Virus record (IMG/VR): IMGVR_UViG_3300046706_000011
Coordinates: 1-64,000 of that record
Source: a virus
Strand: one strand, 5' to 3'
Length of the DNA stretch: 64,000 nucleotides
In this document: positions 217-63,695 of the stretch, one piece after another
Layout: each line of letters begins with the position of its first letter
How positions within the stretch are numbered: the first letter of the stretch is position 1
Position numbers and translations under genes: made by a program
The notes under the pieces: generated by a model
What the model saw: only the letters and a program-made list of their open reading frames with translations
Database searches by the model: none
Told to the model about the DNA's origin: nothing

Positions 217-1248
217 TCAGGTCCGGCACATGAACCACACGACCCGGCCCAACACGATGCCCGTCTCCGGGCTGAACCTGACGGCGCGGCCGACGGCGCG
301 CCCTTCCTGGACGACCATGCAGCCGGAGCGCCACATCCCGAGGACCAGCGCCACGGGGTCGCGCTCCGCCGAGAACACGTAGCTGCGGCCCTCCACGAGG
401 TCCCTCTGCTCCGGATCGACCACGACCTGGCTGCCCGCCCCGTCCTCGACGTCGAGGACCAGGGTCTCGTCCGAGACGTCGCGGAACCGATGCCACCCGA
501 GGACCACGGTGTCGTCCTCCAGCTTGCGGAGCCGCGCGGCGGGCAGTTTCTTCAGACCGGACACGTTGAGCCTCCCCCTGGCCACATCCGCCGCAGCGGC
601 GCGCGACAGGACGGGGACATCCCGCCCATCGTCGTTCGGGGGGAAACTTACCCTGGACGCCATGGTGCCGAGAAGCCGTTTCTCGACCTCGCTTCTGGGG
701 ATACCCCGCTTGGCAAGTGGACCGACGAGGTACCTCACGGTCGAGACATCGAAGTAATCCTTCTTGTAATCGTCCTCCAGGTACTGGTAGGAGCTGGTCT
801 TTTGCAGGCCGGTCTCGGCGGCCATCTGCCTGAGCGAGAGCCGGGGGAACCCCTCCTTGTCCCAGACGCTCTCCCGCATTTCCTTCAACGCGACCGAGGC
901 CGGCCCCCGGACGCCCCGCGCCTTCCTGGCGCGACGCTGGGCGGATGCCGCCCGTTCGGCGGCCTCGGCCCCCCCTGCCTCGGCTCCCCCGTCCCCGGCC
1001 GGCCCGGGCGTCGGGTCCGCCGCGTCCTCCGGGTGCTCCGGGTCGTCCGGGTGCGCGGACCGGGGTCCCCCGGCCATGGCCCTGGGGTCCCCGGCCATCG
1101 GCGGCCGGCGGCCGGCGGGCCGGGCGGCGGCGCGGTTGACGGGGCGGTTGACGGGGTGCCGGCCGGGTTCCGGCCGGGGCTGACGCTGAACCACCATCTT
1201 TGCTATCCCTCTTGACACTGGGCCTTGTTGCGGACCAACCTGCGGCAT
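217..1248 (-). CDS. CI-like phage repressor (HTH plus S24-like C-terminal domain); true start probably downstream of 1248
   Basis: HTH-like LSLRQMAAETGLQKTSSYQYLE; S24-like tail VVVDP...IVLGRVVW; divergent from the replication genes. Confidence 0.65.
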   Translation of the reverse strand: MPQVGPQQGPVSRGIAKMVVQRQPRPEPGRHPVNRPVNRAAARPAGRRPPMAGDPRAMAGGPRSAHPDDPEHPEDAADPTPGPAGDGGAEAGGAEAAERAASAQRRARKARGVRGPASVALKEMRESVWDKEGFPRLSLRQMAAETGLQKTSSYQYLEDDYKKDYFDVSTVRYLVGPLAKRGIPRSEVEKRLLGTMASRVSFPPNDDGRDVPVLSRAAAADVARGRLNVSGLKKLPAARLRKLEDDTVVLGWHRFRDVSDETLVLDVEDGAGSQVVVDPEQRDLVEGRSYVFSAERDPVALVLGMWRSGCMVVQEGRAVGRAVRFSPETGIVLGRVVWFMCRT

Positions 1249-1694
1249 GCACGGTTTCTCCGTTTGTCATGCACGGCTTCGGCGTCCGGTCCGGCGCCAT
1301 GCCCCGAGCCCCTGGATCGACCATCGCCGGGCCGGCGCGCCGGGTTCCGGGACAATCCCGGAACTCACGGCGGGGATAATGCTGGTCGAACCGGAATTCC
1401 GTCAACCAAAATCCCACGGGCCGGAAACCGGTCCCGCGCAACAGTTTGCCAATGAAGGACGGTTCCACCGAAGGTTTCAAGGCGCCTGGGCGGGAGCCCG
1501 TGTCCTTGGGAAGGACTTGGAAGACTTCATGGAAACACCCGGCCCAGCGGAAGTGCTCGCCAAGGCTTTGCCGGGGGCCGCCCCAACTGAAGCCGGGGTT
1601 GCGTCCCCGAGAACATCTTCCCCTCTAGATTATTCGGCATTCCTCATCTTCCGGGCGGCGCGGGGCGCTTCCCGGAGTTCTGGCGAAGGACTGG

Positions 1695-2231
1695 ATGACG
1701 GGAATTGGGATAGCGAAACACCATGCGGGCTCCTCCGCGGCGAAAACGGGTTGCCGCCGGGGCGCCGGGGCGGCGGCCGGCGGCGAGGCCCGGCTCCAGG
1801 CGGACTGGGCCGCCTTCCTGGCGCGCGCCCTGCCGCCCGACGCGGTCCACCACCATTCGCCGGGCGAGGGCCGGCGGGGCTGGCGGGCGCAGGCGGCGCT
1901 GAAGTCGAGCGGGTTCACGACCGGCTGGCCCGACAGCGAGATCGTCTGGCGGGGCCGGGTGTTCTTCCTGGAGCTGAAGGCGCCGGGCCGCAGGCCGACC
2001 GAGTCGCAACGGGCCTGCCATGCCAAATTGCTCGCGGCCGGTGCCGAAGTAGCAGTTGGAACAACCCTGGATGAACTGTATGGTCACGTGGCCCGCTGGG
2101 GAATTCCCCTGGCGATGACGGTGGAGGAATACCGGAGGCCGCGGACGGCCTCGCGGATGACGTTGGAGGAGTTCCGCGCGTTGGGGATGGCGCCGGGACT
2201 TCGGACTCGAACCGGAAAACGACGGAGATGA
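1695..2231 (+). CDS. VRR-NUC domain nuclease
   Basis: GWPD...FFLELKAPGRRPTESQ PD-(D/E)xK motif typical of phage VRR-NUC. Confidence 0.85.
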   Translation: MTGIGIAKHHAGSSAAKTGCRRGAGAAAGGEARLQADWAAFLARALPPDAVHHHSPGEGRRGWRAQAALKSSGFTTGWPDSEIVWRGRVFFLELKAPGRRPTESQRACHAKLLAAGAEVAVGTTLDELYGHVARWGIPLAMTVEEYRRPRTASRMTLEEFRALGMAPGLRTRTGKRRR

Positions 2232-2347
2232 GACGGAATGGCACCCGAGACAGGGCGCGGTCGCGCGCCTACCACCTTTTTGCGCCAAGACGCGCGCACG
2301 GTTTTCCCGTATACCCCCGGTCCGGACGAGACGCGCGGGAGGGGGCG

Positions 2348-3784
2348 ATGATCGAGAACGTTATCCGGTTCCCGGCCCAGGCCCGGGAGGTCCCGCACAA
2401 CATCGAGGCCGAGCACGGCGTGCTGGGCGCGATCCTGGCCGGCAACCGGGCCTACGAGCGGGTCGGCGGCTTCCTGCGGCCGGACCACTTCTACGACCCG
2501 GTCCACGGCCGCATCTACGCGGCGGCGGCGGCGGTGATCGACCGGGGCGGGGTGGCCGACCCGGTGACGCTCCGGGGGGCGTTCCGCGACGACCCGGCGC
2601 TCGCGGCGGTCGGCGGGGCGGGCTACCTCGCGGACCTCGCGGCCAGCGTGGTGAGCGTGCGCAACGCCGAGCACTACGGCCGGCTCGTCGTGGACTGCGC
2701 GATGCGGCGCGAGCTGATCGAGGCCGGGCTGGACCTGATCGCGCGGGCGTCCTCGGCGTCGCCGGACGACGCCGGGGCCGGGGCGCGGGGCGTGGTCGAG
2801 GAGACCGAGTCCCGGCTGTTCGGGCTGGCCGAGGACGGGGCGGCGGGCGGCGGGCCGCGCCCGGTCGCCGAGTTCGTGGACGCGCACGTGAAGAACGTCT
2901 ACGCGGCGCAGGACGCGCCGGACGGGATCGTCGGCCTGCGCACCGGCCTGATCGACCTGGACCGCGAGCTGCGCGGACTGAAGCCCGGCGCCCTGGTCAT
3001 CATCGCGGGAAGACCTTCGATGGGAAAAACCGCGTTGGCGCTAAATGTCGCGCATCAGGTCGCGAAGGACGGCGGGTCGCCCCTGTTCGTCAGCGAGGAG
3101 ATGCCGGGCGAGGAACTGGCCGCCCGCCTGGTCGCGGACCTGACCGGCATCCCGGTGCAGGAGCAGTTCTCGCGCCTGACGCCGGAGCAGTTCCGCCAGG
3201 TCGAGGACGCGCGCCACCAGCTCTCCGGGTCGGGCCTCTGGATCGACGACACGCCGTCGCTGACCATCGCCCGGCTGCGCACCGTCGCCCGCCGGCACAA
3301 GCGCCGGCACGGCCTGTCGGCCCTGTTCGTGGACTACCTCCAGCTCCTCCACGGCGGCGGGAAGCACGAGAACCGGGTCCAGGAGATCAGCACCATCAGC
3401 CGGGGGCTGAAGGAGATCGCCAAGGAACTGCACGTCCCGGTCATCGCCCTGTCGCAGTTGTCGCGGGCGGTCGAGAGCCGGGAGGACAAGCGGCCCATGC
3501 TCTCGGACCTTCGCGAGTCCGGCTCAATCGAGCAAGACGCCGACATCGTGGTCTTCCCGTACCGCGCGGAATACTACGTCGCCCGCCAGGAGCCGGTCCG
3601 CGGCGCCAACCAACGCGACGAGGACTTCGCGGAGAAGCGCCAGCAGTGGATCAACCTCCTGGAGGAGGTCTCCGGGACCGCCGAGATCATCATCGCCAAG
3701 TTCCGGCAGGGCAGCGCCACCTCGGTCAAGGTGGCGTTCGACGGTGCCAGGACGAAGTTCTCCGACCTCTACCGGGATCGCTGA
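2348..3784 (+). CDS. dnaB: Replicative DNA helicase DnaB
   Basis: PHNIEAE N-terminus, Walker A GRPSMGKT, DYLQL, LSQLSR, DLRESGSIEQDAD; ATG at 2348 after GAGGGGG. Confidence 0.97.
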   Translation: MIENVIRFPAQAREVPHNIEAEHGVLGAILAGNRAYERVGGFLRPDHFYDPVHGRIYAAAAAVIDRGGVADPVTLRGAFRDDPALAAVGGAGYLADLAASVVSVRNAEHYGRLVVDCAMRRELIEAGLDLIARASSASPDDAGAGARGVVEETESRLFGLAEDGAAGGGPRPVAEFVDAHVKNVYAAQDAPDGIVGLRTGLIDLDRELRGLKPGALVIIAGRPSMGKTALALNVAHQVAKDGGSPLFVSEEMPGEELAARLVADLTGIPVQEQFSRLTPEQFRQVEDARHQLSGSGLWIDDTPSLTIARLRTVARRHKRRHGLSALFVDYLQLLHGGGKHENRVQEISTISRGLKEIAKELHVPVIALSQLSRAVESREDKRPMLSDLRESGSIEQDADIVVFPYRAEYYVARQEPVRGANQRDEDFAEKRQQWINLLEEVSGTAEIIIAKFRQGSATSVKVAFDGARTKFSDLYRDR

Positions 3785-4107
3785 CGTGACCGCCGCGGCG
3801 CCCAGGGCATCGAGCATGAGACAGGACGGCCAGACGGCGCCGCGCCCCACGATACGCCTTGAAGAAACGAAGTTTCCGTGTGAGACTCAAACGGAAACGG
3901 GCGGGGTGCTGACAACACCCCGCCCGCCCGACCATCGAATGGGTCGATGGTTGACCACAGCGGACGGCACGACAAAGAGCACCCGCCATAGCGATACACG
4001 CTCTCATGATCGCAGGTCCGGACCGGGATTTCAAGGGGGTCCGTTCGACCCCCCGGAAGAATTCCGCGACGGGCTTGGTGCCGTCCGCTCCGAACCGGAG
4101 CACGACA

Positions 4108-4436
4108 TGCGCACCCAAGATCCCAAGACCCCCCAAATCTCCCAGGACATCCAAGGCGACGGCGTCGAGACAGAGTACTCCCCGGCCCGGATGACGCGGC
4201 TGACCCGGAACCTGGACAACGTCCAGGCCCTCGCGTACCTCCGGCTCCTGGACCACATCGTCATCGCGGGCGGGTGGCTGCGCGACGACGCCGCCGAGCT
4301 GGCCCGCGTTTCCCGGTGTCCCGAGCGGGAGTGGCCCAGGGTCAAGGCGGCCCTGCTCCGTCGCGGCCTGCTCAGGCTGGGGCGCGACGGCGTCACCTAC
4401 GGGCACCGGCACCCGTTCCGGGGGGGTGCGCGATGA
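4108..4436 (+). CDS. Short DUF1376/YdaU-like protein (start uncertain)
   Basis: AYLRLLDH...LRDDAAELARVSRC..EWPRVKAALL resembles the N-terminal domain of the next gene; its stop overlaps the next ATG. Confidence 0.5.
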
Positions 4437-5722
4437 GCCGGGCGATCCCAGACCCGACCGGCGTCCCCGACGATCGGTATCCGCGCATCCGGAAGACCGC
4501 GACCCTCCACGTCCAGTACTGCCCGAAGGACCTTATGGCGACGGGCCGGAAGGTTGATCCGCAGTCCGACTTCGCCTACCGCCTCGTCCTGGACATGATC
4601 TTCCTGACCGGCGACCGGGTCCCCGACGACGACCATTACCTGGCCGAGGTGACGCGGCGCAGCGTCGCCAAGTGGCGCAAGGCCAAGGCGGTGCTGCTCC
4701 GGTGGGACCTCCTGAGGATCGAGGGCGGCCGGATCACCAGCGGCGAGGCGTTGGAGCGGCTGGACCGGCTGGAGATCCAGATCGGCCAGAAGTCCCGCGC
4801 CGGCTTGGCCTCGGCCGAGGTCCGCGAGGCCGCGCGCCAGTCCGGCCGCGAGCCCGAACACGGTTTCGATGCGAATTCCGATGCGGATTTTTATCGGAAT
4901 TCTGAGGACAACCCATTGGAAAACAACGAAACACGTTCAACGGCTGAACCAACGAACTATAAACTAAGAAAAGAAGATGATGATAATAACCGCGGGCGCG
5001 CGCGCGAGGCGGAGGAAGAGGCGGGGTGCCCCGTGGCCGAGCCCGCGCCGGAGGCTGTCCCGGAGCCTGCCCAGGAGGCTGCCCCGAGCGCCGCGCCGAC
5101 CCCGGCCGAACCACCGGTCGCCCCCGCCGCCGCCGAACCCTTCGTCCCGCCTCCCAAGCCGCCCCGGATGGACCCGAACGTCTGGGCACTCATCCAGTCC
5201 CTGACGGACGCCGTGGTCGAGGCCTACGGCGAGGAGGTCGGCGGCTGGGCACGCAAATTCAACGACGCGACCGATGAATACCACGCCTCCGCGCTGCTCA
5301 AGACGGCGGGCGAGCTGGGGCTCGGGACCGGCGAGGCCATCGACAGGGTACGCGAGCACCTGAGGCGGAAGTGCCGGGACTACGCGGCGGAGGGGCACGA
5401 GGCCCCGACCGCGCTCAAGTGGCTCTCCAAGAGCGCCGCCGGGGATCTCAGGTCCCTCGCCAAGGCACGCGACAAGGCCGCCAAGGGGTTCGGCGGGAGC
5501 TTCGGGAACGGCTCGGGCAGGAACGGGAACGGCGGCGAGCCGGGGGCGCACACGGTCGTCCAGAAGGCCTGGGAGCACGCGGTCAGCAATCTCGCCCGGA
5601 AGCACAGGTTCGCCGAGGTCCGGCAGATCGAGGCGGAGGCGAAGGCCAACGGCGACGCCGCCGCGAACGCCCTGGCCGACCGGCTGGTGGAGGCCGCGCT
5701 GGGAAAAAGGCGGGCGGCGTGA
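4433..5722 (+). CDS. Phage replication initiator, DUF1376/YdaU-like, with an internal AT-rich origin-like segment
   Basis: AYRLVLD...VPDDDHYLA...KWRKAK...KSRAGLASA domain; AT-rich stretch 4860-4990; lies just downstream of dnaB. Confidence 0.7.
   Translation: MSRAIPDPTGVPDDRYPRIRKTATLHVQYCPKDLMATGRKVDPQSDFAYRLVLDMIFLTGDRVPDDDHYLAEVTRRSVAKWRKAKAVLLRWDLLRIEGGRITSGEALERLDRLEIQIGQKSRAGLASAEVREAARQSGREPEHGFDANSDADFYRNSEDNPLENNETRSTAEPTNYKLRKEDDDNNRGRAREAEEEAGCPVAEPAPEAVPEPAQEAAPSAAPTPAEPPVAPAAAEPFVPPPKPPRMDPNVWALIQSLTDAVVEAYGEEVGGWARKFNDATDEYHASALLKTAGELGLGTGEAIDRVREHLRRKCRDYAAEGHEAPTALKWLSKSAAGDLRSLAKARDKAAKGFGGSFGNGSGRNGNGGEPGAHTVVQKAWEHAVSNLARKHRFAEVRQIEAEAKANGDAAANALADRLVEAALGKRRAA
4910..5009 (+). 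repeat. Origin-like element, copy A (related copies at 22441-22550 inverted and 57129-57179)
   Basis: AACAACGAAAC..TTCAACGGCTG..CAACGAACTATAAACTA..AAAAGAAGATGATGATAATAACCGCG is shared with the reverse complement of 22441-22550. Confidence 0.85.
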
Positions 5723-5809: not shown

Positions 5810-6505
5810 ATGGTGCAGACACTGGAGTTCGACGACGTGGCGAAGAAGCGGCGTGTATGGGGTGCCAAGACCCGGGCGAAGCAGCGCAAGGCCGAGGCCC
5901 CGCCGTCCCAGGACCTGGGGACCCCCGAGCAGTGGGCCAAGAAGTTCGGCGCGGCCACGATCGACGAGGCGGGCAAGATCCGCCACGAGGTCCTGCGCGC
6001 GCTGGAGATCGAGCCGCGGCTGCTGGTGGGCGAGACGCGCAAGGCCCAGGGGATGGGCGCCCGGAACCGCGCGGAGAACCCGCTCGACGCGCTGTACCTG
6101 CGCGGCCTGCTCGGGAACCTCTCGGACCCGCGCTCGCGGGCCTCGGCCCTGCGCCGCCGCCGGGCGGGCCAGCGCCTGCGGGTGACCCACGACGGGGCGG
6201 GCATCGCCCAGAAGACCACGGTCAACCTCAGCGCGGCGGGCGGGGGCGGCGGCGGGCGCGACCAGACCGACCGGGAGGCCGAGACCGAGATGGTGTACTA
6301 CCGGATGCTGAAGGCCTGCGGGCGGACGTGGGCGCTGGTCCGCGACGTATGCTGCGACCTCCAGGCCCCGGCCGAGAACGCGGTCGTGCTCGGCCAGCTC
6401 ATCGCGGGCCTGGACCTGCTGTCGGTGTACCTCCGCCTGCGCGACGATGACGATGACGAGGTTGCGGGGGCGCCGCCGGCCCCGGAGCGGGCTTCGGTGC
6501 GATGA
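5810..6505 (+). CDS. DUF6456-like phage transcription regulator (Q-like position)
   Basis: NPLDALYLRG...AGQRLR...TVNL...LVRDVCC pattern; last gene of the replication operon. Confidence 0.55.
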   Translation: MVQTLEFDDVAKKRRVWGAKTRAKQRKAEAPPSQDLGTPEQWAKKFGAATIDEAGKIRHEVLRALEIEPRLLVGETRKAQGMGARNRAENPLDALYLRGLLGNLSDPRSRASALRRRRAGQRLRVTHDGAGIAQKTTVNLSAAGGGGGGRDQTDREAETEMVYYRMLKACGRTWALVRDVCCDLQAPAENAVVLGQLIAGLDLLSVYLRLRDDDDDEVAGAPPAPERASVR

Positions 6506-6751
6506 CCGGAACCTTCGGCGGTCCGCTGGAGCGTGGCCCGACGCGGGCGTGGCCTTGACCGGCAGCGGTCGCGGCGGTAGAACAGGGTCCCGTTTTTTTA
6601 GACATCGTGAAAGGCGGGGATCAAGGCCGGCGGACGGACCCAGCGTATCGGGTCCGTCCCTGCCCGCGCGGTTTCCTTGGCGCGGGTGTCGTCAAAGGTC
6701 GGCGTCGATGGCGTTCCAGTATTCATCGATGCAGGTTTCGCTCCCTTTCTG

Positions 6752-6946
6752 TCACTCATCGACATCACTATCGACTTTCTCAAACGCCCAGAACCCGCCC
6801 TCGTTCTCGTTTTCGTCATAATACGCTTTGAGGTTAGCGCCACAGTTCTGGCAAACAGCGGCCTTGTTGTGTTCGTGCTCCCTGAACCAATCCTCCGCAT
6901 CAACGCCTGAGTCTTCTTCGCAGACTGGACAGTATGAACCCGGCAT
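6752..6946 (-). CDS. Small acidic zinc-ribbon protein
   Basis: CPVC and CQNC pairs, 64 aa, D/E-rich. Confidence 0.55.
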   Translation of the reverse strand: MPGSYCPVCEEDSGVDAEDWFREHEHNKAAVCQNCGANLKAYYDENENEGGFWAFEKVDSDVDE

Positions 6947-6963
6947 GATCCGCTCGCTTTCTG

Positions 6964-7584
6964 TCAGTCTTGTTTCGGGGTTACATCCATCTCAAGCTCA
7001 TCCGGCAGTGTCGCCATGACGGCCATGATGGCGTCCTTGTAGTTATAGATCGTAGTCGGCGCGACCCCGACCATTCTCGCCGTATAGCTGCGGCTCTTTC
7101 CTGACTTCATCAGAACCGCTGCTTGTCTAAGTCTGCCGTCATCCATGACCGGCGTGCGACCGAATTTCTGCCCGCGCTGACGAGCGGAAGCTATGCCCGC
7201 CCTGGTCCGCTCCACAATCATATCTCGCTCGAACTGAGCCAGGGAGCCGAGGAAGTGCAGCAGCAAATTGCCAATAGGCGTTGTGGTGTCCATTCCTTCA
7301 GTGAGGCTTTTGAACCCGACGCCGATCTTCCGCAAATCCTCGATTAGTTCCAGCAATTCGATCAGTGACCTTGCGAAGTGGTCCAACTTGAACACGACGA
7401 CCACATCGCCGGATCGCAGGGTTCTGAGCATCTGTGTCAATCCTGGGCGCTTCTGCCTGGACTGATATCCGGTCATGACATCGGTGAAGATATTCTTTTC
7501 TTCCACGCCATCAGCCTTCAACGCATCGGTTTGCGAGTCCAGCCTTTGGTCGGTTGTGGAAACCCTCACGTACCCAAACTTCAT
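6964..7584 (-). CDS. Serine recombinase (resolvase/invertase family) with C-terminal HTH
   Basis: GYVRVST catalytic motif, RPGL, LDHFARS, FERDMIVERTRAG, HTH ARMVGVAPTTIYNY. Confidence 0.95.
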   Translation of the reverse strand: MKFGYVRVSTTDQRLDSQTDALKADGVEEKNIFTDVMTGYQSRQKRPGLTQMLRTLRSGDVVVVFKLDHFARSLIELLELIEDLRKIGVGFKSLTEGMDTTTPIGNLLLHFLGSLAQFERDMIVERTRAGIASARQRGQKFGRTPVMDDGRLRQAAVLMKSGKSRSYTARMVGVAPTTIYNYKDAIMAVMATLPDELEMDVTPKQD

Positions 7585-7760: not shown

Positions 7761-7825
7761 GAACATTCGCCAACCCCTTTGATGAACACCCAATAGACGC
7801 CCGGCTGCGGGCATAGGAGAACGGC

Positions 7826-55941: not shown

Positions 55942-56045
55942 CCGCGCATCGCCGCGGGATCGGGGGCTCCGGCCCCCTTCCCACGGGAGGAACAAACGAA
56001 TTTCCCGTTCACAAACGCCCTCGGGCCTCCCACGGAGAAAATCTG

Positions 56046-56360: not shown

Positions 56361-56370
56361 GGGGGAAGAC

Positions 56371-56553
56371 ATGACGGGAATGGCACGGGTTCGCTCGGCC
56401 GCCGCGTATTGGCGGGCTCGGGCGCTGGAGCACCTGGACCGCATCGAGAAGTTCAGGTTGGATGAGACGACCGAGGACTATCACAACGGCGAGGCCGCGT
56501 TCTGCCTCGCCAACGCCGAACGGCTTGAGCGGATGGGGGACGGGAGTCGATGA
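56371..56553 (+). CDS. Small hypothetical protein (moron)
   Basis: RBS GAGGGG; ATGA coupling to the next gene. Confidence 0.55.
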   Translation: MTGMARVRSAAAYWRARALEHLDRIEKFRLDETTEDYHNGEAAFCLANAERLERMGDGSR

Positions 56554-56936
56554 GACGGATCGCGATCGCCGCCCTGGTCCTGGCCGCGTGGCCGGGACCG
56601 GGAACCGCCGCCCCGCGCGAGAGCCTGGGCAAGGAGGCCTACCGGTGCCTCACCAAGGGGGAGGCCGTCGATATCATGGAGGAGACGGGGAAGCTGATGG
56701 TCCTGCTCGACCGCGAGATCCCGAGGGCGCGGCGGACGGAGCGGGCGGCGGTGCGCCGGGAGATCGAGGGCGCGTGCCTGGAGTCCGGCGCCGAGGCCGA
56801 CTGGTGCCGCAGGATCGTGCTCGGGGGCGACGCCGCCCTGGAGCGCCGCGCGTGCCTGGAGGACGGCCTGGACCCGGACTCCTGCGGGACCGTTTCCCAT
56901 TCGGGGACGCCGGGCGAGGAGGAGGTTCCGCGATGA
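56550..56936 (+). CDS. Secreted Cys-containing protein (moron)
   Basis: Signal peptide and several Cys residues. Confidence 0.6.
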   Translation: MRRIAIAALVLAAWPGPGTAAPRESLGKEAYRCLTKGEAVDIMEETGKLMVLLDREIPRARRTERAAVRREIEGACLESGAEADWCRRIVLGGDAALERRACLEDGLDPDSCGTVSHSGTPGEEEVPR

Positions 56937-57130
56937 CATCGACGTGGACGGCGGACGACGTGGTGACGCTCCGGCGGATGCACCACTGGACCCAGGAGGA
57001 CCTTGCGGCGGTGTCCGGGTACAGCACCAAGACCATCGTCGCGTTCGAGACCGACCGCAGGACCATTCAGAAACGGCACGAGATCCTGTTCGGCTTCCTC
57101 CAGAGATTTGGACCGCTTTGTGATGGCTAA
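56933..57130 (+). CDS. XRE-type HTH regulator (moron)
   Basis: LRRMHHWTQEDLAAVSGYSTKTIVAFE; GGAGGAGG RBS. Confidence 0.8.
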   Translation: MTSTWTADDVVTLRRMHHWTQEDLAAVSGYSTKTIVAFETDRRTIQKRHEILFGFLQRFGPLCDG

Positions 57131-58058
57131 ACCATTGGAAAACAACGAAACCGTTTCAACGGCTGTTCCCCAGCCGTTGGTCCGGCCGGACCCACGGGCA
57201 TACCGGCGAACCATGGACGATGATGACCAGGACCTCTTCCCCGGCATGTCCACCGCACCGGCCCTGGGGCTGCCGGCCGATGGTGACATTGTTCACTCCG
57301 ACGCCTTGGATATCCTGGCGGGGCTCGCCGCGGGGACTGCATCCCTCATCGTCACGGACCCGCCTTACGGAATTGCCTACCACTCAAACTACTATAGGGG
57401 AAGAAACCCGCATGCGCCCATCTCGCAGGATTGGGATTTCCAGATCGGCGCCTTCTTTGCGGAGGCCTCCCGTGCCCTTGTCGATGGCGGGGCCATCTAC
57501 CTGTTCACTCGCTGGGATGTATACCCGTTGTGGTATAAGGAAATTCCAAAGGCCCTCTCCTTGAAGAATGCCATCGTCTGGAAGAAAGACAACTGGTCGA
57601 GCGGCGATCTGTACGGCAACTTTGGCAATCAGTATGAAATCGTCATGTTCTTGACCAAGGGGCGGCACAGCCTGCGCGGCAAGCGATGGCCGAATATCTG
57701 GGAGTTTCCGCGTATCCCCGCCAAACGACTGAGAATGCCGGCGGAGAAGCCGGTCGGCCTGTACGAACGCGCCATCCTGTCATCCAGCGACAAGGGGGAC
57801 TTGGTCGTGGACCCGTTCTGCGGCTCCGGGACGGCGGCCGAGGCCGCCCGCCGAGCAGGCCGGCGCTTTCTCCTCGGTGACATCGACCCGAAGATGGTCA
57901 GCATGGCGCGGGAACGTGTCGGTCTCTCCACCCCGACGGTCCAGGACGAACCGGGACGCAAGGCGCCGCCATGCCCGGTATTCTCGGTGGAACCGCCCGA
58001 TATCTCGCTATGGGGGTTGCATCCGGAAGATGTTCTGCACTCGCGAACGGGGCGGTGA
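57123..58058 (+). CDS. DNA N4-C/N6-A methyltransferase (beta class); start may be 57213
   Basis: TDPPY, IVWKK, EKPVGL, VVDPFCGSGT. Confidence 0.93.
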   Translation: MAKPLENNETVSTAVPQPLVRPDPRAYRRTMDDDDQDLFPGMSTAPALGLPADGDIVHSDALDILAGLAAGTASLIVTDPPYGIAYHSNYYRGRNPHAPISQDWDFQIGAFFAEASRALVDGGAIYLFTRWDVYPLWYKEIPKALSLKNAIVWKKDNWSSGDLYGNFGNQYEIVMFLTKGRHSLRGKRWPNIWEFPRIPAKRLRMPAEKPVGLYERAILSSSDKGDLVVDPFCGSGTAAEAARRAGRRFLLGDIDPKMVSMARERVGLSTPTVQDEPGRKAPPCPVFSVEPPDISLWGLHPEDVLHSRTGR

Positions 58059-58108: not shown

Positions 58109-58813
58109 TTACGACTTTCCGCTACCGATACCTGGGAAGCCTCCGTACGGAAGTGGTATAGCCCCGAACCGCTTGCGGCAATCCGAAAGGCGTTTCCCGC
58201 ACCGATCCTGGGCGGGGTCGCCAGTCGGGTTGCCGTTCGGCAGGAACATGGCGGCGCCGGCGTAGGGACAGGCATGTGGATCGGATGAATAGGTGAAGCT
58301 ACCACCGTTCCAAAAGCGGTACCTCCATGGGCAGTGGTTCTTGGTCGCGACCCGGCCCGGTATCTGGCGGCCCTGCTGGTCGAGGTCGGCGGCCAGCTCC
58401 CACCGGATCATCGTCTTGTTCTGGAGGACCTTGCGCTCGATGCGGAAGATGTCGGGCGGGAAGTGCTGGTTCGGGTCGGCCTGGGGCTGGCCGTCGAGGT
58501 ACTTGACGAAGGTCCGCCAGCGGATCACCCGCGCGCCGCGCAGGTCGTCGAAGGACACGACCGCCGCCGCGATGAGCACGTCCTTGGCGACGGTCAGGGT
58601 CGGGGTCGGCAGCGAGCCCTGGGCGGCCTTCTCGAAGCCGTCCGCGTCGATCGGCAACGGGATGTATTGCTGTCCCTTCCAGCGCACGGCTTGGCCGTCC
58701 AGGGTTCCGGGGACGTAGTTCAGGACGCCGCCCCCGATGCTGGTCATGTCGATTTGATAGAGCCGGATCTCGGCGCCGGGGTCGAGGCGTTGGATGTCTG
58801 CGGCGATGGGCAT
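58109..58813 (-). CDS. Minor tail protein L-like
   Basis: LPTPTLTV, RTFVKYLD, CPWRY, CGKRLSDC..RFG, YGGFPG. Confidence 0.95.
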   Translation of the reverse strand: MPIAADIQRLDPGAEIRLYQIDMTSIGGGVLNYVPGTLDGQAVRWKGQQYIPLPIDADGFEKAAQGSLPTPTLTVAKDVLIAAAVVSFDDLRGARVIRWRTFVKYLDGQPQADPNQHFPPDIFRIERKVLQNKTMIRWELAADLDQQGRQIPGRVATKNHCPWRYRFWNGGSFTYSSDPHACPYAGAAMFLPNGNPTGDPAQDRCGKRLSDCRKRFGAIPLPYGGFPGIGSGKS

Positions 58814-58820: not shown

Positions 58821-59177
58821 TTAGGTTCCGAGGTCGTGGACTTGTTCGAGGGAGGCGTCGATGTCCCAGCGGCCTGGCACGTCCTTGACCGGCGACCACG
58901 AGTACTGCGGGCACACCCACTTCTGGGCGGTCGAGTAGCCGGTGGGGACCCACCAGAACCACGTGACGCCCTGGTGGGTCGCGAAGAAGTTCCGCAGCGT
59001 CTGCATCTCCTGGGTGGAGCGCGCCCGCCACTGGACGGAGACCTTGGTGGTGAGGGCGTTCAGGCCGTCCAGGGATCGCAGGCTGTAGCCGTCCTGGAAC
59101 GAGACGACCCGGCGACGCGGCTCCTCCTGGAACGAGGGGCTGTAGGCCATCGGGATTGAGGGAAGGGTCAGCGCCAT
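58821..59177 (-). CDS. Minor tail protein M-like
   Basis: FQDGY..DGLN, FF..HQGV.WFWW.P. Confidence 0.9.
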   Translation of the reverse strand: MALTLPSIPMAYSPSFQEEPRRRVVSFQDGYSLRSLDGLNALTTKVSVQWRARSTQEMQTLRNFFATHQGVTWFWWVPTGYSTAQKWVCPQYSWSPVKDVPGRWDIDASLEQVHDLGT

Positions 59178-59198: not shown

Positions 59199-62100
59199 TT
59201 AGGAATTGCTTAAAAGGCCACCGTTCCTACGCTCCTTAATCAGCTTATCGTTCATCGCCTGCTCGATCTGGCGCGCGATGGCCCGGCCCTGGCGCTCGGC
59301 GGCGCCCTGGTCCATGCCCTGCTGGGCGGTGACGTTCACGGTGATGTTGTTGGTCGCCCCGCCTCCGCCGGCCGGCGCGAGGTTGGCCATCTGGCCCGGC
59401 GTGAACACCCCCTCGCCCTTCTTCAGCACGGCGGGGACCTCGTTGCCGGCGAGCCCGCCCGCGTGGTATCGGATCAGAGACGACACCGACGGCATGGGCC
59501 GGAGACCGGGGACCTCGCGCCCGACGACCCCGCCGGCATGGAACGAGGGGATGGCGCGAAGCGGCCCGCCCTCGACGCCGATGATCCCGCCCCCGTGCTT
59601 CTGCGACATCATCATGCCGCCGCCCATCACCGCCGCGTTGGCGGCGAACATGCCCCCGCCGCCGCCGAACATCATGGCCAGGGGTTGGATGATCGCCATC
59701 CGGATCGCCATGCGCGCGAGGTCGGCCGCGATGGACTTCGCCATGTCCGCGAACGCCTCCCGCGCGGACTTCGCCCCCGTGACGATGTCCACGAGCGCGT
59801 CCTCGAAGTGCATCAGCCCGCCGTAGGCCGCCTGCCGCATCGCCTCGTTGCCGGTCATCATCGAGTTGGCGAGCTGGTCGAGCGAGTCGTTCATGCGGGA
59901 CAGGCGGTCGGCCGACACCGCGGTGTCGCCGGCAAGCCGGATCTGGCTCTGGCTCAGTTCGTCGGTCGCCGCCCCGTTGGCCGCGATGAGTTCGTTCTCC
60001 TTCTGGATCTCGGCCATGCGGCGGAGCCGTTCCTCGCCGAACAGGCTCATCGCCTCCATCTGCCGGTTGGTGCCCTCGACCTCCAGTTGGCCGAGGCGGA
60101 TGCGATCCTCGGACTCGCGGGTCCAGTCCCCCATGGCGCGATCGCCCGCGGAGGCGACGAACTGCCGGCCCCGGTCGCTCTCCGGGTCGGCGCCCTGGCC
60201 GAGCAGGTCCTGCCGCGCCCCGGCCTCGGCCAGGGCGCGGATGCGAGCCTCGCCCACCTTATCGTAGGCGGCCCGCACCTCGTCGAGGGAACCAACGTAG
60301 CGTCGGTTGGCCGCGACTTCGCCCGCGATGCGCTCGTCCTGGGCGGCCTCGCGCCGCTTCTCGATCAGTTCCTCCAGGCTCCGGACGGCGGCTTGGTCGG
60401 AGGAGATCCCGAGGTCGGCCGCCATGCGGCGGGCCTCGATGGCGTCCTTCTCGCGGTTGACGGCGTCCACGCCCTGGTCGTGGGCGGCGGCGAGTTCCAG
60501 GACCGCCTTGGTATCCTCGCGCAGGCCGAACTTCGCGGCCTCGAACTTCGTCGCCTTCTGGACGTCGTAGAGGGTCCCGACCAAGCCCTCCAGCGCGGCC
60601 TTCTGGTCCTTGGTCAGCTTCTCGGAGAAGCCGTGGACCTTGTTCATGATCTCCTGGGACCGCGTCGCCTGCTCGACGGCGCTGGCCGTGCCCCCGTAGG
60701 CGGAGGCGAGCTGGCGCTGCGCGTCGATGGACTGCCCGAGTTCTCGGCTCTTTTCCCCGAAGGTGTCCTGGGGCGTCCGGCCGGTCTTGTTCTGCTGGCG
60801 GATGCGGTACTGGAGCCCCGCCCGCTCCCCGCGCTGCTCGACGATCTTCTGGTCCGCCGCGCTCAGCGGTGCGTCCGGGCCGTAGCCCCGTTCGCGCCGG
60901 AGGTCGCCGATCGCGTCCTCGCGGCCCGCCTTGACCGCGGCGGCGACCGACTTGATGCCGCCGACGCCGGCCTGCCGAGCCACCGCGCGGGTCTGGATGA
61001 CCTCGTCCTCAAGCTGCTTCTGGGCCTGGAGGTCGAGGTCGGAAAGCGCCTTTCTTCCCTGCATCATGAACGGCAGGTTCTCGGGCCGGGGACCCGGCCT
61101 GTTGCCGGCGGCGACCTGGGCCGGGAACTGGGCGAGCGCCGCGATGCGCTCCGGCCCCTGCGTGGTCGCCTGGATCTGCGACGCCATGGCGTTGGAGTCG
61201 ATCTCGCGCTGCTGGCTCGCGACCTTGAGCTGGATCGCCTCCAGTTCCTCAGCGCGGTTGTGCGCGGCCACCAAGGCGTAGATGGCCGACGCGGCGCGAC
61301 CCGTGATGTCGATCCCGGCCTCCAGGACCTTGTTGCGCGCGTCCTGGGCGTCCTTCTCGTCCTGGACCGCGTCGGTGCCCTTCTTGTGGGCCTCGGCCAT
61401 CCGGTTGGACAGCTCGATCTCGGAGCGCAGCGTCTGGAGGATCGGGCCGGCCGACAGCATGTCGCGCGCCGCGTTGAGCTGCCGGTAGGACTCGCGAAGC
61501 TTGTCCACGTCCTCGGGCAGCATCTGGCCCTCGGGCAGGCGCTGCTTGCCGGCCACTTCCCCCTGCATGCGCGAGATGTCGCCGCGCAGGGCGTCGTTGC
61601 CGGGATCGGCCCGGAGCTTCGCCTGGGTCTCCTCGATCCGGACGTTCAGGTCCGCGATCTCCTTCTTGGTCTGCTCGGAGACGCGGAACTCAAGCGGCTT
61701 GGTCTGGGAGATGATCTCAAGCTCGCGCTTGACCCCGACCATCGCCTCCTTGCTGGACTGGAACTGCCGCCCGAGCCTTTCCTGGCCCTCGATCTGTTTC
61801 CGGATCTCGGCGGTCTGCTTCTCCAGTTCCTTGGTGGACCGCTGCTGGTCGGTGAGCGCGTCGGCGGCGGGCGAGGCCGCGCCGCTCCCGCCCAGGGCCT
61901 TCTCGGCGGCCTTGCGGCGTTCCTCGGCCTCGCGGATCTGCCGTTCGACCTGGGCGGTGTTGTACATCGCCGCCCGGCTGTCCTCCTGGGTCGGCCCGAA
62001 GGTGGACTGCCCGCCAGGCGAGGCGCGCCGCTCGACGGACGCCTCGGACTCCATCAGGGCGCGGCGCTGCGCCAGCTCTTTCTCAAGCTCCGCCTGGACA

Positions 62101-63695
62101 TCCCTGGACGAGTCCACGATGGCCTTTGCCCGGTCCACCGCCGCCTTCTTCTCGTCGCCGGAGGCCGACGCGATCTGCCGATGGAGCTGCTCGATGTCGG
62201 CGAGCGACTTGGCGTGCCCCTTGGCGGTGGCGTCAACCGCCTGGAGGCCCTTGTTGGTCTGGACCAACGCGAGGACGCCGGCCGCCAGGGCGGCGGCGAG
62301 GGCGAGCAGGGGATGGCCTGCGAGGGCGACGCCGAGGCTGGCCAGCGAGGTCGCAAGGCCGCCGATCGCGCCGACGACACCGATCACCCAGCCGGCCAGC
62401 TTGATGGCGATGAGCCCCTCGACCACCAGCATGACGGTCTGGATGTTCTCGGCGAGGACCTTGAATGCCGCCACGAGGTTCTCGACGGCGGTCTTGAGCA
62501 TGCCGCCCAGTTCCTCCGAGAGCTTGCGGCCCTCGATCCCGTTGAGGAAGCGCGCAAGGTCCTGGGCGCCCTCTGCGGCGGCCTTGAGGAAACCCGCCTC
62601 CGAGACGCGGTTCTTGAACTCATCGAAGGCGTTGGACAGCCGGTTGAACGCCGCCCCGGCCCCGTCCAGCGCCCCGGTGAGCGGGAACTTCTCGGCCACG
62701 GCCCGACCGAAGGTGTCGAAGAACGCGCGCGCGGAGACCTGCCCCTGGTCCATCGCCTTGCCGAGCTGCTCGACGCTCATGCCCATGGCGCGGGCGGCGA
62801 GGTTGACCGCCCCCGGAAGCTGCTCCCCGAGCTGTTCCTTCAGCTCCCCAGCCTGGACGGTGCCGCGGCTGGCGATCTGGGCCAGGGCCAGGAACGCCCG
62901 GCTCGCGTCTTCCGGGCTCTTGCCCAGCACGGACATCGCCTGGGCCACCGCGAAGAACGTGTCCTTGGCCTTGGCCATGTCCACGTTGGACCCCGCCACC
63001 GCCGCCGTGAAGCCGACATACTGCTTGCCGGTCGAGAGCAGGTTGAGGCCGAGGCGCTGGCTCTCGGCGCGCAGGCGCTCCATCTCCTGGGCGCCCTTGG
63101 CGCTTGACCCGGTGGCGACGTCGAGCCCGGTCCGAAGGCTCTGGAAGGCCATGCCGACCTGGGCGACGTCCCGCACCAGGACGCCGGCCCCGATTCCGGC
63201 CAGGACGCCTTTGAGCGACACGACGGAATCCTCAAGGCGTCCAAAGGCATTCCGCAGGTTGTTGACGTGCTGGACGGCGCCGGAGGTGTCCAGGTTCAGC
63301 CTGGGGACGGACGTGGCGGCATCCGCGCCGCTGGTCCTCGGCGGGCGGGGCGCCGTGAGGACCCGCGCGGCGTCGGCCCGCCTCTCGGTGGCGCGGCTCT
63401 CGGCGTTCAGGGCTTCCTGCCGGGCGGCCGACTCCCGCCGCACCGCGTCCGTCTTGCGCTGCTCGGCCTGCTCGACGGAACGCGCCTCCGCCTCGGCCGC
63501 GCGGCTGGCCTGCCCGGCGCCGGGCGCCGGGTCCGGCCGGCGCATGGGGCGGATCGCGTTCAGCTTCTCGACCGCCGCCACGGCCGCCTCGGCGCGGGCC
63601 TTGATGGCGTCGAGCGCACCCTGGACCATGCGGGACCCCGTCAGCGCTCGCGAGGAGTCGATGACGATCTGAAGGGTCTCTTGCCTATCGGCCAT
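59199..63695 (-). CDS. Tail tape measure protein
   Basis: LAQIASRGTVQAGELKEQLGEQLPGA tape-measure domain; long Ala-rich helical body; FHAGG..EVPAVLKKGEGV C-terminus. Confidence 0.95.
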   Translation of the reverse strand: MADRQETLQIVIDSSRALTGSRMVQGALDAIKARAEAAVAAVEKLNAIRPMRRPDPAPGAGQASRAAEAEARSVEQAEQRKTDAVRRESAARQEALNAESRATERRADAARVLTAPRPPRTSGADAATSVPRLNLDTSGAVQHVNNLRNAFGRLEDSVVSLKGVLAGIGAGVLVRDVAQVGMAFQSLRTGLDVATGSSAKGAQEMERLRAESQRLGLNLLSTGKQYVGFTAAVAGSNVDMAKAKDTFFAVAQAMSVLGKSPEDASRAFLALAQIASRGTVQAGELKEQLGEQLPGAVNLAARAMGMSVEQLGKAMDQGQVSARAFFDTFGRAVAEKFPLTGALDGAGAAFNRLSNAFDEFKNRVSEAGFLKAAAEGAQDLARFLNGIEGRKLSEELGGMLKTAVENLVAAFKVLAENIQTVMLVVEGLIAIKLAGWVIGVVGAIGGLATSLASLGVALAGHPLLALAAALAAGVLALVQTNKGLQAVDATAKGHAKSLADIEQLHRQIASASGDEKKAAVDRAKAIVDSSRDVQAELEKELAQRRALMESEASVERRASPGGQSTFGPTQEDSRAAMYNTAQVERQIREAEERRKAAEKALGGSGAASPAADALTDQQRSTKELEKQTAEIRKQIEGQERLGRQFQSSKEAMVGVKRELEIISQTKPLEFRVSEQTKKEIADLNVRIEETQAKLRADPGNDALRGDISRMQGEVAGKQRLPEGQMLPEDVDKLRESYRQLNAARDMLSAGPILQTLRSEIELSNRMAEAHKKGTDAVQDEKDAQDARNKVLEAGIDITGRAASAIYALVAAHNRAEELEAIQLKVASQQREIDSNAMASQIQATTQGPERIAALAQFPAQVAAGNRPGPRPENLPFMMQGRKALSDLDLQAQKQLEDEVIQTRAVARQAGVGGIKSVAAAVKAGREDAIGDLRRERGYGPDAPLSAADQKIVEQRGERAGLQYRIRQQNKTGRTPQDTFGEKSRELGQSIDAQRQLASAYGGTASAVEQATRSQEIMNKVHGFSEKLTKDQKAALEGLVGTLYDVQKATKFEAAKFGLREDTKAVLELAAAHDQGVDAVNREKDAIEARRMAADLGISSDQAAVRSLEELIEKRREAAQDERIAGEVAANRRYVGSLDEVRAAYDKVGEARIRALAEAGARQDLLGQGADPESDRGRQFVASAGDRAMGDWTRESEDRIRLGQLEVEGTNRQMEAMSLFGEERLRRMAEIQKENELIAANGAATDELSQSQIRLAGDTAVSADRLSRMNDSLDQLANSMMTGNEAMRQAAYGGLMHFEDALVDIVTGAKSAREAFADMAKSIAADLARMAIRMAIIQPLAMMFGGGGGMFAANAAVMGGGMMMSQKHGGGIIGVEGGPLRAIPSFHAGGVVGREVPGLRPMPSVSSLIRYHAGGLAGNEVPAVLKKGEGVFTPGQMANLAPAGGGGATNNITVNVTAQQGMDQGAAERQGRAIARQIEQAMNDKLIKERRNGGLLSNS

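Follow-up and report, generated by a model that had tools for sequence, protein, structure and literature searches.

A 64,000-nucleotide stretch of DNA (the window), comprising bases 1–64000 of a 90,506 bp IMG/VR virus contig from a soil metagenome (G000, GC content ∼70%), carries phage genes and conjugation genes together on one contig. This observation, made in a preliminary description of the sequence, was confirmed, and the interpretation offered there was supported, as those of its own refutation tests that were run all favoured it. Five related contigs are referred to below as G001–G005. Taking the explanation as a whole, we consider it probable that the window represents about two thirds of a ∼100 kb temperate phage genome with a lambda-like tail, and that a full conjugation module of plasmid type resides in this genome and is not a neighbouring element. 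The phage may spread both as virions and by cell contact. If this is true, a single genome travels as virus particles and by mating, a combination described as not found in a 2025 review.

Pfam matches and a reading of the relaxase His-triad bore out the relaxase, coupling protein and trb-like genes reported previously. All are encoded on the plus strand. The 691-aa relaxase (22855–24930) carries the His-triad HDDTDHPHAH, matches PF03432 under the cut-off (E = 3e-4) and shares 38% identity with its positional counterpart in the Skermanella plasmid pTT6-3. It is followed by a type IV coupling protein (T4CP) of the VirD4/TraG type (25094–26674; PF02534, E = 1e-36; 47% identity to the pTT6-3 T4CP), a VirB11/TrbB ATPase (27032–28027; PF00437, E = 4e-24), a TrbC/VirB2 pilin (27981–28418; PF04956, E = 1.5e-8), and an 83-aa open reading frame (28492–28743) assigned to TrbD/VirB3 from its position only. 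The VirB4/TrbE ATPase (28722–31241) belongs to protein cluster P0001, with precomputed Pfam assignments PF19044, PF27097 and PF12846; a direct Pfam scan gave one match barely above the cut-off (PF12846, E = 1.2e-6). Its identity to the pTT6-3 protein is 35%, and metagenome relatives are found at 58–61%. The next gene, which encodes a 552-aa protein (31535–33193), had been called TrbJ. It is instead a homologue of the beta-helix protein encoded directly after VirB4 in the type IV secretion systems (T4SSs) of Skermanella and G001: it is 38% identical to a pTT6-3 gene annotated as a beta-helix repeat protein, and its G001 counterpart matches PF13229 (E = 5e-28). TrbL/VirB6 (33473–34744; PF04610, E = 1.4e-9), VirB8/TrbF (34747–35457; PF04335, E = 2.8e-8) and VirB9/TrbG (35516–36526; PF03524, E = 4e-7, just under the cut-off; 35% identity to TrbG/VirB9 of pTT6-3) precede VirB10/TrbI (36523–37794), which has a transmembrane segment, a proline-rich region and a TrbI domain over the cut-off (PF03743, E = 8e-10) that was detected only in the correct frame, as chosen by GC3. 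A small conserved gene (37795–38142), with 30% identity to the gene that comes next to virB10 at the end of the pTT6-3 series, closes the operon. Every tra reading frame is intact and has a normal length, and from these assignments the conjugation gene set looks complete, with relaxase, T4CP, VirB11, VirB2, VirB3, VirB4, VirB6, VirB8, VirB9 and VirB10.

Directly upstream of the relaxase gene lies an AT-rich intergenic region (22123–22854) with CCGTATC repeats, a candidate oriT within which no nic site was identified. The co-oriented minus-strand genes that read away from it (18834–22122) form, by their position, a candidate leading region. Two of them encode pentapeptide-repeat proteins (20695–21267 and 21697–22122; PF00805, E = 1.6e-36 and 1.5e-36), and DNA of the pentapeptide repeat (repeat family D1) also spans 21290–21660.

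On the other side of the conjugation genes, the late operon runs on the minus strand. It includes genes for an endolysin-like protein (40713–41633; PDB 7q47 Endolysin, E = 3e-15) and a 198-aa protein (h198, 41525–42121), both conserved in G001, G003, G004 and G005, and h198 in G002 too. Fibre/adhesin genes identified by Pfam (43018–48247; 1090 aa with a Calx-beta domain, 484 aa and 147 aa) are syntenic across G001–G005 at 36–57% identity. The tail-tip block J (48702–53609), I (53606–54235) and K (54244–55101) matches PF24801, PF13550, PF06805 and PF00877, and has relatives at 50–76% identity. Tail proteins L (58109–58813) and M (58821–59177) and the tape measure (59199–63695) form a further block (PF05100, E = 7e-46; PF05939, PF20155 and PF09718), and the start of a tail assembly chaperone gene reaches position 64000 and runs beyond the window. 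Tape measure, M, L, K, I, J and the endolysin-like protein of the lambda-like tail and lysis module described earlier were recovered, but the tail operon is interrupted at 55.2–58.1 kb by a plus-strand moron. Located between K and L (55208–58058), it comprises a lipoprotein-like gene, small open reading frames and an N6/N4 DNA methyltransferase (57003–58058); the K–L junction of G002, G003 and G005 carries a TnpB gene. G000 also carries a 22-kb fibre and glycanase array.

Missing or decayed head genes had been named as a finding that would count against the interpretation. The right end of G000 falls inside the major capsid protein (MCP) gene, with bases 90403–90501 encoding the last 33 aa of MCP at 82% identity to that of G004, and in relatives terL (with an intein), a DUF4055 portal gene, a scaffold gene and the MCP gene are found directly upstream of the h277 gene. 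A Logan contig from the source run extends 2,979 nt beyond the end of G000, which has no terminal repeat and an estimated completeness of 88% (CheckV). G000 is a truncated phage and not a headless tail cluster. Neither ParA/ParB nor a repABC- or parAB-type plasmid backbone was found in its 90.5 kb. At least about 12% of the genome is missing from the contig, and integrase or partition genes could sit there. A high-GC alphaproteobacterium from soil, of the Skermanella/Azospirillaceae kind, is the probable host.

At the left end of the window, plus-strand genes encode a DnaB-type replicative helicase (2228–3784; PF03796, E = 2e-87; PF00772, E = 2e-27) and two DUF1376 initiator-like proteins (3744–5722; PF07120, weak matches under the family cut-off, E = 2.6e-6 and 1e-3), the second of whose genes contains an AT-rich, origin-like segment (4910–5000). 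Pfam thus upheld the DnaB and initiator parts of what had been described as a repressor/DnaB/initiator module, but the putative repressor had no match in Pfam, PHROG or PDB. This 343-aa CI-like protein, encoded divergently on the minus strand (217–1248), seems from its sequence to have a helical, HTH-like region ahead of a beta-rich C-terminal part, and its AF2 model is of low confidence (pLDDT 47). Composition and Pfam content mark 6500–10900 as a low-GC island (55–60% GC) that is probably a foreign insertion: its tetranucleotide correlation with the rest is 0.52–0.77, compared with 0.84–0.91 for the tra and late blocks among themselves. A small serine resolvase/invertase (6964–7584, minus strand), which had been thought to fit a plasmid-like prophage state, lies in this island together with an IS605-type TnpB (8565–9950, plus strand), and it no longer serves that argument. 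Further features of the left arm are a C5 cytosine DNA methyltransferase (11477–12589, minus strand; PF00145, E = 3e-22) and, from a reading of repeats, a plus-strand CRISPR mini-array (18007–18097) of two repeats and one 27-nt spacer, the repeats of which we take to resemble a type I-C CRISPR repeat. A 19-nt part of the array recurs inverted at 39305–39323; no target of the spacer was found among the loci examined.

Several signals connect the two arms with the conjugation block. As noted in the preliminary description, the origin-like segment of ∼100 bp recurs beside the candidate oriT, as an inverted copy at 22460–22560, ∼300 nt upstream of the relaxase gene; at 57129, within the K–L moron, 37 nt of it are present once more. 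The motif ACGG-N5-CCGT, previously seen in phage modules and at the left edge of the tra block, occurs 10 times in the window versus 3.1 expected. Copies with an A/T-rich spacer, at contig positions 1251, 2298, 18512, 18821, 42281, 55107, 65597 and 65735, are located on both sides of the tra block in AT-rich stretches that are apparently non-coding or at gene edges, and such sites are absent from the relatives. The tra block matches the tail block in GC content and in tetranucleotide usage (tetranucleotide r = 0.91 in G000 and 0.92 in G001), consistent with the earlier impression from GC alone, and composition is uniform across the tra junctions of G000. Signs of a recent ICE insertion were looked for: no tyrosine integrase was found in G000–G004, and neither a clean att junction nor att-like direct repeats were found on either side of the tra block.

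The decisive result is that the phage-plus-T4SS layout recurs, as a search for relatives with the same tail and tra synteny had been meant to reveal. G001, an independent IMG/VR contig from another sample (74 kb, 60% GC), belongs to the same phage clade, is syntenic with G000 from endolysin to MCP (28–63% identity), and has a T4SS at the same place and in the same orientation. The genes found there encode T4CP, TrbB, pilin, VirB3, TrbE, beta-helix protein, TrbL, TrbF, TrbG, TrbI and a TraF-like peptidase, and they include a NikA-like gene as well. Four more metagenome contigs (114,630, 106,412, 88,837 and 60,202 bp) hold J of the clade and VirB4, a pairing deduced from equal size in bp and source as opposed to direct reading of the sequence. 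For three of these, J identities of 75, 67 and 70% correspond, in the same order, to VirB4 identities of 75, 62 and 56%, so that the two proteins co-diverge, as expected of a long-standing linkage. VirB4 proteins of G000 and G001 are only 27% identical, the J proteins of the same pair 51%. Each T4SS has a closer counterpart on a Skermanella plasmid, so the module has been swapped or acquired more than once. Different members carry different T4SS lineages, which look like those found on Skermanella plasmids, and the module has therefore been exchanged with plasmids. The 143-kb relative G004, which is classed as a provirus, lacks VirB4 and T4CP and, except for a resolvase, has none of the left-arm genes of G000.

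These lineage differences, with each T4SS collinear with that of an ordinary, phage-free Skermanella plasmid, also speak for two adjacent elements: a conjugative plasmid or ICE of the Skermanella type, and a prophage of this clade that has inserted into it or become fused to it. The arrangement would be a cointegrate or resemble a phage–ICE tandem, in which the T4SS, relaxase and perhaps the DnaB module are the carrier's and the phage hitchhikes. The point where the tra block meets the lysis end of the late operon is a natural boundary between modules; in G004 this end lies 3 kb from the provirus edge, and the G000 left arm is not shared by that relative. Phage–ICE tandems and one E. coli fusion plasmid are, moreover, documented. 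We nevertheless regard this explanation as unlikely, given that integrase, att-like repeats and a plasmid backbone were not found in the contigs and regions specified above, that element-specific motifs occur on both arms, and that the origin-like repeat occurs in the initiator gene as well as next to the relaxase gene. Contigs with both modules measure 106–115 kb, approximately the size of phage plus T4SS alone, J and VirB4 diverge together, and the T4SS occupies the same side and orientation in two divergent members.

If the T4SS is resident, it might still not move the phage, and could instead mobilise other DNA, secrete proteins, provide an adhesion or receptor pilus, or be a decaying remnant. 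Consistent with this are the relaxase match under the Pfam cut-off and the candidate oriT in which no nic site was recognised; furthermore, 20 kb of tra genes need some benefit, because a ∼100 kb genome is already near fixed capsid capacity. Decay is at odds with the intact frames and with selection on the module. Compared with L004, an 88%-identical contig, VirB11 and VirB4 gave ω values of 0.32 and 0.31 (dS 0.22–0.24), and the small pilin gene was looser (dS 0.47, ω 0.58); tail genes of the J–I–K block gave ω 0.21–0.26 (dS 0.20–0.32) against L006, a contig that need not come from the same genome as L004. By these estimates, which are similar for T4SS and tail genes, purifying selection acts on both the T4SS (VirB11, VirB4) and the tail module. 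Together with the retained His-triad, the T4CP, and the repeat-bearing, AT-rich region next to the relaxase gene, this makes a T4SS without a role in phage transfer improbable. A metagenomic chimera of phage and plasmid is very improbable: G000 is a single short-read contig without a terminal repeat, and the contig-overlap check covered only 76–90.5 kb, a range outside of which the tra junctions lie, but the same juxtaposition is found in G001 and, by equal bp size, in four more contigs, composition is uniform across the junctions, and motifs are shared by both arms.

For a resident conjugation module, the following course of events can be proposed. In a carrier cell the element would probably be a plasmid, because no integrase was found, replicating from the AT-rich origin inside the initiator gene with its own DnaB while the putative CI-like regulator holds the late genes off. 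The relaxase would nick within 22.1–22.85 kb, and the T4CP and T4SS would export the strand such that the block from 22.1 to 18.8 kb enters first, with its pentapeptide-repeat proteins possibly acting as DNA mimics. Induction would then switch on the late operon on the minus strand, with its head, fibre array, tail and lysis genes, and yield virions carrying the entire genome together with the tra genes. Each functional step of this dual transfer is inferred.

Among known systems, alphaproteobacterial phage-plasmids of ∼117 kb, such as pAMS5a of Methylobacterium sp. AMS5, and the large Rhizobium siphophages vB_RleS_L338C and RHEph10 share with G000 a large genome (110–120 kb), a lambda-like tail-tip block M-L-K-I-J (J 36%, L 39% identity) and a DnaB-type helicase of their own. 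pAMS5a, which is a circular plasmid, has all its virion genes but, unlike G000, uses RepC replication and is typed as non-mobilizable; for L338C, the part read has no annotated T4SS gene and no match to the G000 T4SS proteins. Head genes are not homologous, and G000 differs in its fibre/glycanase array, relaxase, T4CP and T4SS. The closest conjugation systems are the Trb/VirB-type (MPF-T-like) clusters of Skermanella sp. TT6 pTT6-3 and Skermanella rosea pSR-1, which have the same order as G000: T4CP, small gene, TrbB, pilin, VirB3, TrbE, large beta-helix protein, small gene, TrbL, TrbF, TrbG, TrbI, small gene. G000 T4SS proteins are 30–47% identical to those of pTT6-3, and TrbE of G001 is 72% identical to that of pSR-1. 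The Skermanella clusters belong to plasmids of 215 kb and 613 kb that carry repABC or ordinary plasmid genes and have no phage genes in the vicinity, whereas that of G000 is flanked by phage genes, those for replication on one side and the late genes on the other.

Phage–ICE tandems (Huang et al., Sci Adv 2026, PMC13651849) place a prophage and a conjugation system next to each other on one DNA molecule with potential joint transfer, and arise by site-specific accretion with integrases and att sites; their authors emphasise that these are not hybrid elements. G000 differs in that no tyrosine integrase or att repeats were found, in its motifs on both arms, and in the co-divergence of J and VirB4. 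Classical phage-plasmids such as P1, N15 and SSU5 (Pfeifer et al. 2021, PMC7969092; review PMC12282955) are, like G000, temperate tailed phages with their own replication module and no integrase. They have partition systems and none is conjugative; in the sequenced 88% of G000 there is no ParA/ParB, but MOB, T4CP and T4SS genes are present. E. coli p1002-1, a fusion-born “conjugative phage-plasmid” (SegMantX preprint, 10.1101/2025.03.14.643293), also unites a phage-plasmid and a conjugative plasmid in one replicon. It goes back to one fusion event, in related isolates, between two parent plasmids that can be recognised, whereas the clade of G000 carries its module at one genomic position, with 25–45% protein divergence since.

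The phage genome under study (G000) is a single contig of 90,506 bp, bases 1-64,000 of which form the window. Its GC content is ~70%, and it is listed in IMG/VR as a "linear" virus record and estimated by CheckV to be 88% complete. No terminal repeat was found in it. Only one public run contains it, a soil metagenome from which it probably came, and a Logan contig from that run extends 2,979 nt past its end. Because GC is high, genes were picked by third-position GC instead of ORF length. Megablast gave no matches, either for the tail half among phages or for the tra half among plasmids, and a PHROGs search of the unknown proteins found none for nine out of ten. Two tRNA calls, over-long and inside coding regions, are probably false.

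The preliminary description had placed a relaxase, a candidate oriT, a coupling protein and trb-like genes between phage modules, and this arrangement was confirmed. The candidate oriT region (22123-22854), upstream of the relaxase gene, is an AT-rich gap of 730 bp containing CCGTATC repeats. The putative relaxase (691 aa) falls under the Pfam cut-off (PF03432, 21.4 bits vs. 24.6); it carries the His-triad HDDTDHPHAH and has a homologue at the matching position in pTT6-3, a plasmid of Skermanella sp. TT6. It is followed by the coupling protein (T4CP; PF02534, E 1e-36, above cut-off), VirB11/TrbB, TrbC pilin, a VirB3-sized ORF assigned from position alone, VirB4/TrbE, a 552-aa protein, TrbL, VirB8, VirB9 and VirB10/TrbI. 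VirB4/TrbE is an 839-aa ORF (28722-31241) whose match to PF12846 is barely over cut-off; its protein cluster has precomputed assignments to PF19044, PF27097 and PF12846, and the protein shares 35% identity, over 96% of its length, with the product of the gene that occupies the VirB4 position in pTT6-3. The accessory proteins (VirB2 pilin, VirB6, VirB8, VirB9, VirB10 and VirB11) match the families PF04956, PF04610, PF04335, PF03743 and PF00437, with PF03524 slightly under cut-off. VirB1, VirB5 and VirB7 were not recognised in this type IV secretion system (T4SS). The frame of VirB10/TrbI (36523-37794, plus strand) was fixed by third-position GC, and an ORF at 36594-37760 was discarded as lying in the wrong frame. 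The entire block is collinear with the pTT6-3 T4SS at 30-47% protein identity.

Genes running from 22.1 to 18.8 kb all point away from the oriT-like gap, a position that suggests a leading region, and pentapeptide-repeat proteins are among their products. The pentapeptide-repeat coding array (20695-22122) adjoins the candidate oriT and comprises at least two ORFs and, at 21290-21660, a third stretch. Its products may be DNA-mimic anti-restriction proteins belonging to a leading region. A mini-array at 18007-18097 consists of two type I-C-like CRISPR repeats and one 27-nt spacer without cas genes; the spacer had no match among the loci compared. An exact 19-nt piece of the repeat recurs in inverted orientation at 39305-39323 (other copy at 18011), and two CRISPR-like loci thus bracket the leading region and the tra block. 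The inverted match belongs to the CRISPR-like repeat, and no evidence was found that it is a transposon end.

Relatives sharing tail and tra synteny had been proposed as a check, and one was found. Homologues of the lambda-like tail-tip protein J, 50-76% identical, were found on metagenome contigs whose lengths range from 75 to 209 kb, with many at 115-137 kb. An IMG/VR scan with an alignment of J relatives yielded 17 loci, and the five records examined in full were all syntenic with the G000 late region where covered (~27-68% identity); in G001 and G004 synteny runs from the lysis genes through the gene for a 277-aa protein. G001 (74 kb, 60% GC), from a different sample, carries a T4SS on the plus strand at 0-16 kb that comprises a cut T4CP, TrbB, pilin, VirB3, TrbE, a beta-helix protein, TrbL, TrbF, TrbG and TrbI, together with a TraF-like S26 peptidase and a NikA-like gene. 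It converges on lysis genes at 18.9-20.2 kb, on the same side and in the same orientation as in G000. G004, a record of 143 kb classed as a provirus and estimated to be 91% complete, has neither a T4SS nor the left arm of G000, except for a resolvase.

Co-occurrence of J and VirB4 homologues was also inferred, by matching the size and source of the longest contig listed for each protein, on contigs of 114,630, 88,837, 106,412 and 60,202 bp; in three of the four, the identities of J (75/67/70%) and VirB4 (75/62/56%) rank the pairs alike. Contigs of 42.7 kb and 43.1 kb, identified by their lengths, probably also carry VirB4 of the G000 type, and scans for it gave a single metagenome contig of 4.1 kb but no hit in IMG/VR or in GTDB genomes. 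The G001-type VirB4 gave no IMG/VR locus besides G001 itself. In GTDB genomes the J scan returned relatives of 33-40% identity only, which does not pin down the host. No T4CP was found in five further head-module fragments, whose short length makes them uninformative here.

Two short contigs closely related to G000 allowed selection to be gauged. One (L004) is 88% identical in DNA from the end of the T4CP through VirB4, and the other (L006) 91% across K, I and J. For VirB11 and VirB4, dS was 0.22-0.24 and omega 0.31-0.32; constraint was looser on the short TrbC pilin (dS 0.47, omega 0.58). For K, I and J, dS was 0.20-0.32 and omega 0.21-0.26. The T4SS and tail modules are therefore under purifying selection and about equally diverged, as judged from two contigs that may come from different genomes. 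Tetranucleotide usage agreed with the initial impression that the tra block resembles the phage genes in GC level: the tra and tail blocks correlate at r = 0.91, equal to the late-region halves against each other, and the value in G001 is 0.92. An integrase and flanking att-like repeats had been reported missing around the tra block, and they were again not found: no tyrosine integrase (PF00589) was detected in G000-G004, and the direct repeats on either side of the block reach at most 17 nt, in a G-run that is at chance level. The integrases and att sites that mark the element junctions of a phage-ICE tandem were not detected in G000.

The history of the conjugation module itself is less uniform. 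VirB4 of G000 and that of G001 are 27% identical vs. 51% for J, and each of the two T4SSs is nearer to that of a Skermanella plasmid, both plasmids having ordinary contexts. A quick tree places the phage-linked VirB4s together with TrbE of pSR-1 (Skermanella rosea) in a fully supported clade, apart from ordinary alphaproteobacterial TrbE. The differing VirB4 lineages, the plasmid-nearer T4SSs and the T4SS-less G004 together argue that the tra module was swapped with plasmids or acquired on more than one occasion. The same observations, including the missing left arm of G004, would also fit a prophage fused to a conjugative replicon, that is, two elements. The failure to find a tyrosine integrase or att-like repeats, the motifs shared by both arms (below), the parallel ranking of J and VirB4 and the recurrence of the arrangement in G001 on the same side and in the same orientation speak for one element, and we regard such a fusion as rather unlikely.

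The late region of this single element, as we prefer to read it, lies on the minus strand and runs from high to low coordinates. It opens with the end of the major capsid protein (MCP) gene, followed by genes for the 277-aa protein, which is disordered, and an Ig-like protein, and then by ~22 kb encoding fibres and LamG, beta-helix and GH5 proteins. Next come a DnaT_2-like protein, a weakly matching head-tail attachment protein and a tail-completion protein, then a candidate major tail gene without a family match, chaperones, tape measure, M and L, a plus-strand moron with an N6/N4 methyltransferase, and K, I and J. The region closes with three fibre genes and the genes for a 198-aa protein and an endolysin-like protein. 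Tape measure, tail tip, chaperones and tail completion are thus all present, and the lysis enzyme (40713-41633) matches a solved endolysin (7q47, E 3e-15). The giant fibre/LamG/beta-helix/GH5 array occupies 68.2-90.3 kb of the contig, between capsid and head-tail genes, and its position is kept in G001-G004. The K-L junction is an insertion hot spot, occupied by the moron in G000 (55208-58058), by a TnpB gene in three relatives (G002, G003 and G005) and by 1.3 kb of unrelated sequence in the 91%-identical L006 (1-1332). Two paralogous small genes where the late operon ends in lysis functions are marked by a 98-nt direct repeat (41565-41662 and 42053-42150; 81% identity).

A scan of all 90.5 kb of G000 found no terminase, portal or full capsid gene, and no homologue of the head proteins of phage L338C. 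The possibility that head genes were missing or decayed, raised at the outset, is not borne out. The last 33 MCP codons are present at 90403-90501 and are 82% identical to the Gp13-like MCP of G004; the contig is cut within the capsid gene. A headless, F-pyocin-like tailocin was considered and rejected in view of this MCP end. Upstream of its 277-aa gene, G004 encodes terL with an intein, a DUF4055 portal, a scaffold and the MCP, in an order shared by other fragments, and relatives that reach far enough have terL and portal in the expected place. Since these genes lie directly upstream of the 277-aa gene in relatives, the G000 contig is missing ~11 kb of head genes, which agrees with its CheckV estimate. 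The G004 large terminase is 1036 aa long, with the intein assigned to PF14890 (71825-74935 of G004, corresponding to 11825-14935 of L031, a piece of that record).

The left arm begins with a putative HTH regulator of 343 aa (217-1248, minus strand), read from its sequence as HTH-like with a beta-rich C-terminal part. It has no match in Pfam, PHROGs or PDB, and its AF2 model (pLDDT 47) is too poor for use. DnaB (2228-3784, plus strand) is transcribed divergently from this gene and is followed by two DUF1376 proteins whose Pfam matches fall under the family cut-off. Within the second DUF1376 gene lies an AT-rich, origin-like stretch of ~100 bp (4910-5000). Its reported recurrence beside the candidate oriT was borne out by an inverted, near-identical copy at 22460-22560, ~300 nt upstream of the relaxase gene, and a 37-nt part occurs again at 57129. 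DnaB, the initiator-like DUF1376 genes and this internal segment could serve in replication of a plasmid type. A low-GC island at 6.5-10.9 kb, encoding a small serine resolvase (206 aa) and an IS605-type TnpB, looks like an insertion; the resolvase, earlier taken to fit a plasmid-like state, says little about lifestyle. Beyond the island lie a C5 methyltransferase gene and numerous small genes on the minus strand. No ParB (PF02195) or ParA (PF13614) was detected in the 90.5 kb of G000, from which ~12% of the genome is missing.

The contig contains 13 copies of the motif ACGG-N5-CCGT, where ~3.8 would be expected. In eight of them (1251, 2298, 18512, 18821, 42281, 55107, 65597 and 65735) the spacer is A/T-rich; these eight occur to either side of the tra block, in AT-rich stretches that appear to be non-coding or to lie at the edges of genes. 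The earlier placement in phage modules and at the left tra edge (18821) accordingly stands. The pattern is absent from relatives and is specific to G000. Together with the duplicated origin-like segment, its distribution joins left arm, tra edge and late region in one regulatory set. The copies at 1251-1263 and 55107-55119 lie 3-6 nt upstream of minus-strand starts (the regulator gene and K, respectively) and are purine-rich and Shine-Dalgarno-like on that strand, so that the motif may act in translation, beside or instead of an operator role. A 21-bp palindrome, TGGCCTACC-NNN-GGTAGGCCA, is found in the coding tails of late genes at contig positions 75653, 88606, 88657 and 89689. A fifth copy with one mismatch (42-62) lies at the contig start, 20 nt downstream of a terminator-like hairpin that follows the regulator gene. 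The palindrome is absent from G001-G004 and is likewise specific to G000.

Taken together, the observation of a phage with its own conjugation machine holds, and that reading is supported at the genomic level. Judged from sequence, G000 is a truncated tailed-phage genome, and a full conjugation set forms part of the genome in its clade, where it recurs, is under selection and matches in composition. It is possible, and we suggest it tentatively, that the clade consists of phage-plasmids of soil Alphaproteobacteria, ~100-115 kb in size, that are truly dual-mode, spreading both as lambda-like virions and through transfer by their own relaxase, T4CP and Trb-type T4SS, with a module exchangeable with Skermanella-type plasmids. 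Phages and conjugative elements are usually treated as two separate routes of autonomous gene transfer, and this division would be blurred by a phage lineage in which purifying selection maintains a complete set of conjugation genes. A dual-mode element would alter models of host range and spread, because particles travel far but are receptor-limited, whereas mating needs contact but reaches more hosts. Its dual nature would also account for wrong assignments by tools that must call a sequence either virus or plasmid.

Among known systems, one E. coli fusion plasmid has been called a "conjugative phage-plasmid" in a preprint (10.1101/2025.03.14.643293), and phage-ICE tandems, formed through integrases, have been described as interplay and not as hybrids (PMC13651849). 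The alphaproteobacterial phage-plasmids represented by pAMS5a (~117 kb) distantly share the tail-tip block of G000; pAMS5a is non-mobilizable, whereas G000 carries conjugation genes. For those genes the counterpart is Skermanella pTT6-3, whose T4SS is collinear with the G000 block at 30-47% protein identity.
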